DNA of 25,161 nucleotides, taken from a virus (Duplodnaviria; Heunggongvirae; Uroviricota; Caudoviricetes). Shown one piece after another: positions 20,790-21,476 of the stretch. Positions within the stretch are counted from its first letter, which is position 1, and each line of letters opens with the position of its first letter. The stretch is taken from IMG/VR virus record IMGVR_UViG_2851938318_000004; one strand, 5' to 3'. The translations under genes were made by a program, and so were the position numbers. The notes under the pieces were generated by a model that searched no databases, was not told where the DNA came from, and worked only from the letters and a program-made list of their open reading frames with translations.

Positions 20790-21044
20790 TCGATGAATAA
20801 ACAATACGAACTGGTTGTAAAATGAATATTTCTAACTGAAAAAACGTTCCATGAGGTAAGAAAAGGTCACAGGCAATCAATAACAGGACGTGATGAAAGA
20901 CCCTTGCATTTGTGCGCTTTCTCTTTAGATAGCAGCAGATACTGAAAATCTGAGTTGTCGGGGAGTCAGGGATACAGCTGTGCAAGAGTTGGTCATTGTG
21001 ATTCCATTGAAATCCTGTATGCCATGAAGGGCAGGATTTTATGG

Positions 21045-21359
21045 CTACCTGAGCTTTGGTGATAGTAAGTTGAAAATTCGCATTTTTTGCTGACATGCGT
21101 AACGAGAATCCCATAAACAGGGAGGACTTAATTCTTCATTAACCCATGCGTTGATATTATGTTTCAGCCGTTGAAGCATCAGCGGTGTTAATGTTGTGGT
21201 AATAATATCCAGCGTTTTATGTGAGATCTTACCGTAAGGGTCTGCAAGAATGCTGCTTGTTGCTTCGTTATTATCTGCCATCAGAAGAAGTAACTCTGAT
21301 TTAACGTTTTCTGTCATTAGTTGTAAAAATCTTCTGCGCAAACTTTCTTTACTGTTCAT
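21045..21359 (-). CDS. Hypothetical protein, 104 aa, encoded antisense to the lysis cassette between holin and endolysin
   Basis: Only sizeable ORF in the 687-bp holin-endolysin gap; AT-rich; TATAAT-like hexamer on the minus strand about 70 nt upstream; no clear SD. Confidence 0.4.
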   Translation of the reverse strand: MNSKESLRRRFLQLMTENVKSELLLLMADNNEATSSILADPYGKISHKTLDIITTTLTPLMLQRLKHNINAWVNEELSPPCLWDSRYACQQKMRIFNLLSPKLR

Positions 21360-21476
21360 TTATATGGCTTCATTTGTTGTAATCTGCTGCGTCTCAAGGG
21401 ATATGTTTATGAGAGCGACCATGAGTGTTTGATTATATACCTAACATATCAAGGGATTAGAAATCGATAAATCCCC

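Follow-up and report, generated by a model that had tools for sequence, protein, structure and literature searches.

A reverse-strand gene between holin and lysozyme in a Stx-phage-like Escherichia coli prophage is probably the surviving half of a two-gene module

Introduction

Why should a gene lie on the opposite strand between the holin and the endolysin genes of a phage lysis cassette, and did it come there on its own? The question is raised by a stretch of 25,161 nucleotides (the window; IMG/VR record IMGVR_UViG_2851938318_000004) that is part of a lambdoid, Stx-phage-like E. coli prophage and whose holin and lysozyme genes are separated by a gap holding one small gene in reverse orientation, here called gene B. 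A sequence-only reading had presented this gene as an orphan inserted into the cassette. The matter extends beyond one prophage: gene B occurs in Stx-type lambdoid prophages of EHEC/EPEC, inside the cassette that times lysis and hence toxin release, and about one complete E. coli genome in nine has it; its annotation is nevertheless still 'hypothetical' and, by our reading, has a wrong start.

Results

Geometry and composition of the gap

The left border of the gap is the gene of an S21-type, class II holin of 68 aa (20583-20789, + strand; PF04971, E 1.3e-32; class II holin in RefSeq) and the right border that of a phage lysozyme of 177 aa, a phage 21 R-type endolysin (21477-22010, + strand; PF00959, E 7.6e-24; annotated as lysozyme). 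The gap of 687 bp described by the sequence-only reading is therefore exact (20790-21476), and the other features that it had listed were found as described: the minus-strand ORF of 104 aa at 21045-21359, the AT-rich composition, with 38.7% GC in the gap and 38.1% in the ORF against 55.1% in the flanking late genes, and the -10-like hexamer at 21432-21437, where the plus strand has ATTATA, i.e. TATAAT on the minus strand. Taken from a single sequence alone, the ORF and the hexamer carry little weight: dinucleotide shuffling of the gap produced an ORF of at least 104 aa in 74 of 2000 cases (3.7%), and shuffling of the 117-nt upstream region produced TATAAT in 354 of 2000 (18%).

No insertion-marking repeats flank the gap, the only repeats being short and at chance level, and Rfam 15 gave no covariance-model match at E <= 1 on either strand of 20100-21600. 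A further minus-strand ORF, of 120 aa (20752-21114), has no family match and overlaps the 3' end of the holin gene; it was set aside as spurious.

Gene B is a conserved protein gene

Gene B (21045-21359, - strand) has full-length homologues at 64-79% identity, all of about 104 aa, and homologues at 53% identity in the complete genomes of the converting phages Stx2-converting phage 86 (gp06) and Stx2_12E129. Forms of 113-128 aa were also seen, and an exhaustive profile search reached relatives down to 21% identity in which the reading frame is kept. The pairwise dN/dS between gene B and homologues 53-78% identical to it was 0.14-0.28. Among relatives 96-98% identical, divergence was 2.5-3.8% in gene B, compared with 5.9-7.8% in the adjacent gene A remnant described below and 8.5-12% in the upstream spacer, which corresponds to a substitution rate 2-3 times below that of the flanks. 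The gene was intact in all 47 of the 47 window-type copies in IMG/VR. The low dN/dS shows selection on the protein, beyond mere antisense transcription, and together with the conserved length and a family match it establishes gene B as a real protein gene under purifying selection. The sequence-only reading had allowed for an annotation artefact without conservation in homologous prophages; the conservation and the dN/dS values speak against it.

Neither does the word orphan, used in that reading, hold. Residues 1-102 of gene B matched profile positions 57-158/159 of PHROG 1853 (E 3.5e-47, 161 bits), a phage protein family without assigned function, and the gene had already been annotated in O157:H7 Sakai as ECs_1097 (WP_000138558.1). 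The family is small; a set of 1.84 billion proteins yielded 20 representatives of it at 50% identity. The first 56 positions of the profile, which gene B leaves unmatched, probably stem from over-extended starts in some members.

The start codon deserves correction. RefSeq places it at M15, giving a protein of 90 aa (WP_000138558.1). The 14 N-terminal residues are conserved, and the 53% clade has Ile in place of M15; the better reading of the true start is therefore the first ATG, for a protein of 104 aa, and the annotated form would then be 14 residues short.

A forward ORF of 60 aa (21250-21432), listed as ECs1098 (64 aa) when Sakai was first annotated, overlaps gene B and is antisense to its 5' part. 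A Ribo-seq study of Sakai rated ECs1098 'real', with low RNA and ribosome signal (RPKM of about 24 for forward-strand RNA and of about 14 for ribosomes, in one condition, uninduced Sakai; PMC5597208). The ORF is broken or absent in the 96-98% identical relatives and in the 78% clade and, because of its interruption in the former, it is probably no gene; it was rejected as a candidate.

A small helical protein of the cytoplasm

The homology and structure checks proposed in the sequence-only reading provided the family and a model of the fold, but no functional match. AlphaFold2 modelled gene B as a five-helix bundle with a mean pLDDT of 84.7 and a pTM of 0.74. The product is of about 12 kDa, with a GRAVY of -0.33 and a maximum 19-residue Kyte-Doolittle mean of 0.66, and its pI is 9.3 in the window allele and 6.2 in phage 86. 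No stretch of transmembrane character, no signal peptide and no lipobox were found. The protein is thus predicted to be soluble, cytoplasmic and all-helical, and it shows none of the transmembrane, signal-anchor or lipoprotein signals by which a holin, antiholin, spanin or SAR endolysin would be recognised.

Pfam gave no match at E <= 0.1, the lysis families and DUF1327 (PF07041) included, and NCBIfam gave none. In PADLOC-DB, at E <= 1, there was no match for gene B, for its phage 86 homologue or for four proteins of its partner gene A. A sequence-profile search of the PDB returned nothing credible (best E 0.039, a designed protein), and no fold match gave a functional clue.

The holin-lysozyme interval is a recurrent accessory slot

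The expectation that holin and endolysin genes are normally adjacent was borne out by phage 933W, where the slot is empty and the two genes are 4 bp apart, but not by the Stx relatives in which the interval is occupied. A holin-to-lysozyme span of 1139 bp is common to the best 30 Stx phage matches listed, and the best-matching Stx1a, Stx2a and Stx2c phages listed have about 400 bp between the two genes. In YYZ-2008 the slot holds a forward ydfR gene (YdfR/DUF1327, 114 aa), and it is shared by a forward gene, here called gene A, and the reversed gene B in phage 86, Stx2_12E129 and many prophages. The interval is therefore a recurrent accessory slot of Stx-type phages, and gene B, described at first as inserted into the cassette, is no private insertion but the half of a module that survives.

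The usual occupant between an S21-type holin and an R21-type lysozyme is ydfR, known from the Qin prophage. YdfR (DUF1327) differs from gene B in its forward strand and its unrelated sequence; the Qin protein was recently reported to bind the catalytic half of RNase E (PMC13232886). Gene A encodes a long YdfR/DUF1327-type protein (PHROG 1085, 190-296 aa). Its N-terminus is variable, being of either the DUF1327/YdfR or the coiled-coil kind, and about 135 aa at the C-terminal end form a conserved domain. The AlphaFold2 model of the protein had a pLDDT of 50 and was unusable. In phage 86 gene A is intact as gp05, of 268 aa.

In all of about 90 related loci, gene B lies in a lysis cassette on the strand opposite to the lysis genes and diverges from a lysis gene, its start being 117-128 bp from that of the lysozyme gene in most allele groups. 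It usually converges on gene A, which is forward and oriented with the late operon; in phage 86, Stx2_12E129 and the prophages with both genes in the slot, their 3' ends are 8-9 nt apart or overlap by 21 nt. Each of them also occurs alone: Stx2_95, a complete phage genome, has gene A without gene B, and the loci L060 and L066/67/70 have gene B without gene A. Distant homologues (21-50% identity) keep the convergent pair, with overlaps of up to 33 nt. At these loci the pair stands immediately 5' of the holin gene, with gene B reversed and diverging from the first lysis gene, and the neighbouring holins are of three types (S21-like, Phage_holin_3_1 and Phage_holin_2_3). Since the distant homologues retain the pair at lysis cassettes with three holin types, the comparison indicates that gene B has long been associated with both the lysis cassette and gene A.

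The pair 5' of the holin was located at 4001-5121 in locus L072, at 1425-2264 in L094 and at 4001-4895 in L097. The first of these has an extra ORF of 118 aa directly 5' of gene A. If this ORF is YdfR-like, the E. coli YdfR proteins of 268-296 aa would be fusions of two separate genes.

The forward partner has decayed in the window

DNA homology to ydfR-carrying phages runs 39 bp past the holin gene to 20828, where the blastn homology to YYZ-2008 and phage 86 stops, and resumes at 21439, 38 bp before the lysozyme gene. At the left end of the gap, a ydfR/DUF1327-type stub of 10 codons, MNKQYELVVK followed by a stop (20793-20825, + strand), matched the YdfR N-terminus, MKKKYELVVK, at 8 of 10 positions by tblastn, and DUF1327 is represented in the window by this stub only. 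Between the stub and gene B, at about 20875-21038 (+ strand), tblastn aligned a segment with residues 146-186 of the Stx2_12E129 gene A product, i.e. with its C-terminal domain (16 of 41 identical, 39%). The segment contains two in-frame stops and a frame change and ends in MKGRI, to be compared with LKGRI at the C-terminus of gene A. At the DNA level it had no homologue except identical copies. Since the E-value of 4e-5 was obtained in a very small search space, the segment is probably, but not certainly, a decayed gene A remnant.

The presence of the stub and of the gene A remnant beside an intact gene B argues that gene B was not inserted on its own. On this comparison, gene B is what survives of a module of two genes, the forward one of which appears to have decayed in this lineage.

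Expression signals

The divergent spacer of 117 bp between the gene B and lysozyme starts (21360-21476) is the expected place of the promoter and 5' UTR of gene B and of the lysozyme translation-initiation region; homology common to all R-upstream regions starts at 21439 within it. The candidate -10 of gene B, TATAAT at 21432-21437 (- strand), is 72 nt 5' of the ATG and is partly conserved among alleles. It is kept in the 96-100% and 64-67% identity groups, reads TACAAT in the 78% group and is absent from the 53% group, where a hairpin with a T-run replaces it and is followed by a good GAGGA Shine-Dalgarno. A consensus scan called neither a promoter nor a terminator for gene B, and it passed over the TATAAT because no acceptable -35 hexamer lies 16-18 nt 5' of it.

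The window allele has no recognisable Shine-Dalgarno. A mini-ORF of five codons, MKPYK and a stop (21356-21373, - strand), ends in a TGA that overlaps the ATG of gene B (ATGA), and this layout is common to three allele groups (window, 78% and 64-67%) with differing codons; it may be a translational-coupling leader that stands in for the Shine-Dalgarno. No intrinsic terminator was found 3' of gene B, and the minus-strand fold after its stop is unremarkable (z -1.4), so a minus-strand transcript could run antisense into the holin gene. The names ECs1097, ECs1098 and ECs1099 occur in none of the searchable paper texts, and the Sakai RNA-seq/Ribo-seq tables examined contained no transcript or ribosome data for ECs1097, the Sakai Ribo-seq supplements among them listing ECs1098 and not ECs1097.

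On the lysozyme side of the spacer, comparison of 21466-21476 with loci L003-L010 showed that the window type is 10 bp shorter just 5' of the lysozyme ATG, where a GATAAAT-like direct repeat has one copy fewer. This difference could alter the lysozyme translation-initiation region.

Distribution

Of the 5426 complete E. coli genomes compared, about 625 carry the 687-bp segment at a query coverage of at least 80%, and in about 610 genomes it is at least 99% identical. The carriers include O157:H7, O26, O103, O111 and O145 strains. In O157:H7 Sakai the segment lies in prophage Sp4, and ECs_1097 is identical to gene B over all 104 aa. Given the near identity of the segment in so many genomes, the persistence of gene B within this clade could be partly due to hitch-hiking. 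A DNA search of the gap against 50,697 phage records gave no match, even in distant mode; among isolated phages, gene B was matched at the protein level only, in 4 records.

Discussion

A probable moron-type gene in a lysis-cassette slot

We favour, with moderate confidence, the explanation that the gap is an accessory slot of the lysis cassette and that gene B is an independently transcribed, moron-type gene, the surviving half of its module. Gene B opposes the Q-dependent late transcript, is AT-rich and is preceded by a -10-like element, and for these reasons it would most probably be transcribed on its own, in the manner of a moron. By analogy with lambda bor, this transcription would probably take place in the prophage state. 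As the product is small and helical and has no catalytic motif, it most probably binds another protein, which might be that of gene A, one of the lysis proteins or a host factor, and would be neither an enzyme nor a membrane protein.

Compared with morons in the sense of Hendrix and Juhala, gene B is an extra gene (the S-R distance is 4 bp in 933W and 687 bp in the window) of deviant composition (38.1% GC against 55.1% in the flanks), and it has a partly conserved TATAAT, with no -35 and no intrinsic terminator, where a moron has its own promoter and terminator. The layout recalls bor of lambda and 933W, which is likewise a reverse-strand gene beside the lysis genes, directed against the late operon, of deviant base composition and extra among late genes that adjoin each other in related phages; in 933W it lies just after Rz and is annotated as 'expressed in lysogenic state'. 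Bor is an outer-membrane lipoprotein with a role in serum resistance. Unlike bor, gene B has no signal peptide or lipobox, is placed inside the cassette and not after it, and is followed by no recognisable terminator; the two are alike in layout without being related.

Alternative explanations

The pairing with gene A also suggests a conflict module, in which gene B would be the antidote, immunity or regulator half, lingering after the late effector gene A, the first to decay, is gone. Such a role would fit the tight convergent arrangement, with 3' ends that are 8 nt apart at one extreme and overlap by 33 nt at the other, maintained down to 21-34% identity beside three holin families, as well as the state of the window, with gene B intact and gene A destroyed, and the occurrence of gene B alone in at least two other arrangements. 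Toxin-antitoxin and immunity pairs are similar in that a larger and a smaller gene are constantly paired and the smaller outlasts the larger. However, in the complete genome of Stx2_95 it is gene A that stands without gene B, so that each gene can occur alone; the two genes converge and form no operon, unlike the co-transcribed genes of type II toxin-antitoxin systems; neither matches a PADLOC defence or toxin-antitoxin model; and the gene A model, at a pLDDT of 50, offers no effector fold in support. We consider this explanation unlikely. A role at the level of RNA or transcription seems to us very doubtful. Minus-strand transcription would then collide with read-through or late transcripts across the S-R interval and the 3' end of the holin gene, or be antisense to them, and so damp leaky expression of the lysis genes in lysogens or tune the timing of lysis. 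Gene B does oppose the late operon at every locus, no intrinsic terminator separates its stop from the holin gene, and forward-strand RNA over the interval is low in uninduced Sakai (RPKM about 24 for ECs1098). A pure RNA role, on the other hand, would not need the selection on amino acids that the dN/dS of 0.14-0.28 and the kept protein length indicate, a transcript from about 21425 would miss the lysozyme ribosome-binding region, no Rfam family was found on either strand, and in Sakai gene B is still intact although the cassette there has the opposite orientation with respect to Q and the esterase gene.

It is hardly credible, finally, that gene B is a chance frame or an artefact, or that the forward ORF 21250-21432 (ECs1098) is the real gene. 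The 3.7% of gap shuffles with an ORF of this length and the rating of ECs1098 as 'real' on low RNA and ribosome signal (PMC5597208) would be in its favour; purifying selection acts in the gene B frame, which is kept in alleles down to 21% identity, and it is the ECs1098 ORF that is broken or absent in the 96-98% relatives and in the 78% clade. The comparative data thus already largely refute the artefact.

Significance

A more far-reaching proposal, which we hold to be quite unlikely, is that gene A, expressed late, and gene B, reversed and expressed in the prophage, constitute an undescribed lysis-cassette module in which B antagonises or gates A. If it were true, this action of gene B could serve, for example, in the control of lysis, of RNA turnover or of superinfection by related phages, and the orphan gene B of the window and of about 11% of complete E. 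coli genomes would represent immunity against incoming phages that carry gene A.

ECs_1097 (WP_000138558.1) of Sakai Sp4, phage 86 gp06 and PHROG 1853 belong to the same family as gene B and are annotated merely as hypothetical proteins. Among them, gp06 is 53% identical to gene B and has the same position and orientation; its partner gp05 is intact, whereas that of the window is wrecked. In the searchable literature, the constant reverse placement of gene B, its pairing with a long YdfR-type gene and its survival after the decay of the partner appear to be undescribed. The slot, the selection and the link to gene A make ECs_1097 and the phage 86 pair gp05/gp06 concrete targets for study, with the annotation corrected, and the practical value of these findings is uncertain until a phenotype is known.

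Neighbouring features of the prophage

The stx genes are absent from the position that they occupy in 933W and YYZ-2008, and the window prophage is therefore a stx-less relative of the Stx phages. Three tRNA genes (CAT, TCG and TCT anticodons; 17546-17795, + strand) are directly followed by an STnc100-like element and by the gene of a NanS-p-type sialate esterase (18285-20135, + strand), the whole arrangement covering 17546-18285 up to the esterase start. The element is a full-length match to Rfam STnc100 (138 bits; 17872-18062, + strand) just 5' of the esterase gene. According to a 2026 preprint, STnc100 is structurally related to the PasD sRNAs, and YYZ-2008 is a representative carrier of the Hfq-dependent sRNA PasA, which is located between the sialate esterase and the holin. 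In the window, the esterase-holin spacer (20136-20582, + strand) has a strong intrinsic terminator at its end, with a hairpin at 20501-20527 and a T-run, and the region 18160-20828, spacer included, is 95% identical to YYZ-2008 (NC_011356). From this identity and the position given for PasA, the spacer is probably a PasA-type sRNA gene; no Rfam model matched this candidate. The layout of the window appears to be PasD-esterase-PasA-holin, as described for EPEC E2348/69. Pas sRNAs, or anti-sRNAs of the AsxR/AgvB type, were also considered for the gap itself and rejected, the Pas sRNAs mapping between esterase and holin and the gap being empty of Rfam matches.

Downstream of the lysozyme gene lies Rz with an embedded Rz1-like ORF (22289-22813, + strand), and 3' of it a PerC-family regulator gene of 104 aa (23278-23592, + strand). 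Alignment of the window to strain RM9872 identified the latter as WP_001303878.1, and the equivalent position in Sakai Sp4 is annotated as pchA (ECs_1091), which together mark the gene as that of a Pch-type regulator. Pch proteins are activators of the LEE pathogenicity island. A virulence regulator is thus encoded within about 2 kb of gene B.

An IS3-family element (IS629/IS1203-like) is present in two copies (2054-3364 and 23906-25161, both - strand), and both contain an ALIL frameshift pseudoknot (2913-3029 and 24764-24880). The same IS is inserted elsewhere in strain RM9872, between Rz and pch. In Sakai and SS52 the block from the lysis genes to pch shows an inversion with respect to Q and the esterase gene, with IS elements on its flanks, which suggests that the inversion was IS-mediated. 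In the early region of the prophage, we observed a DicF sRNA gene at 5430-5481 (- strand) and a hok/sok locus, with the sok antitoxin RNA, at 12646-12820 (+ strand).
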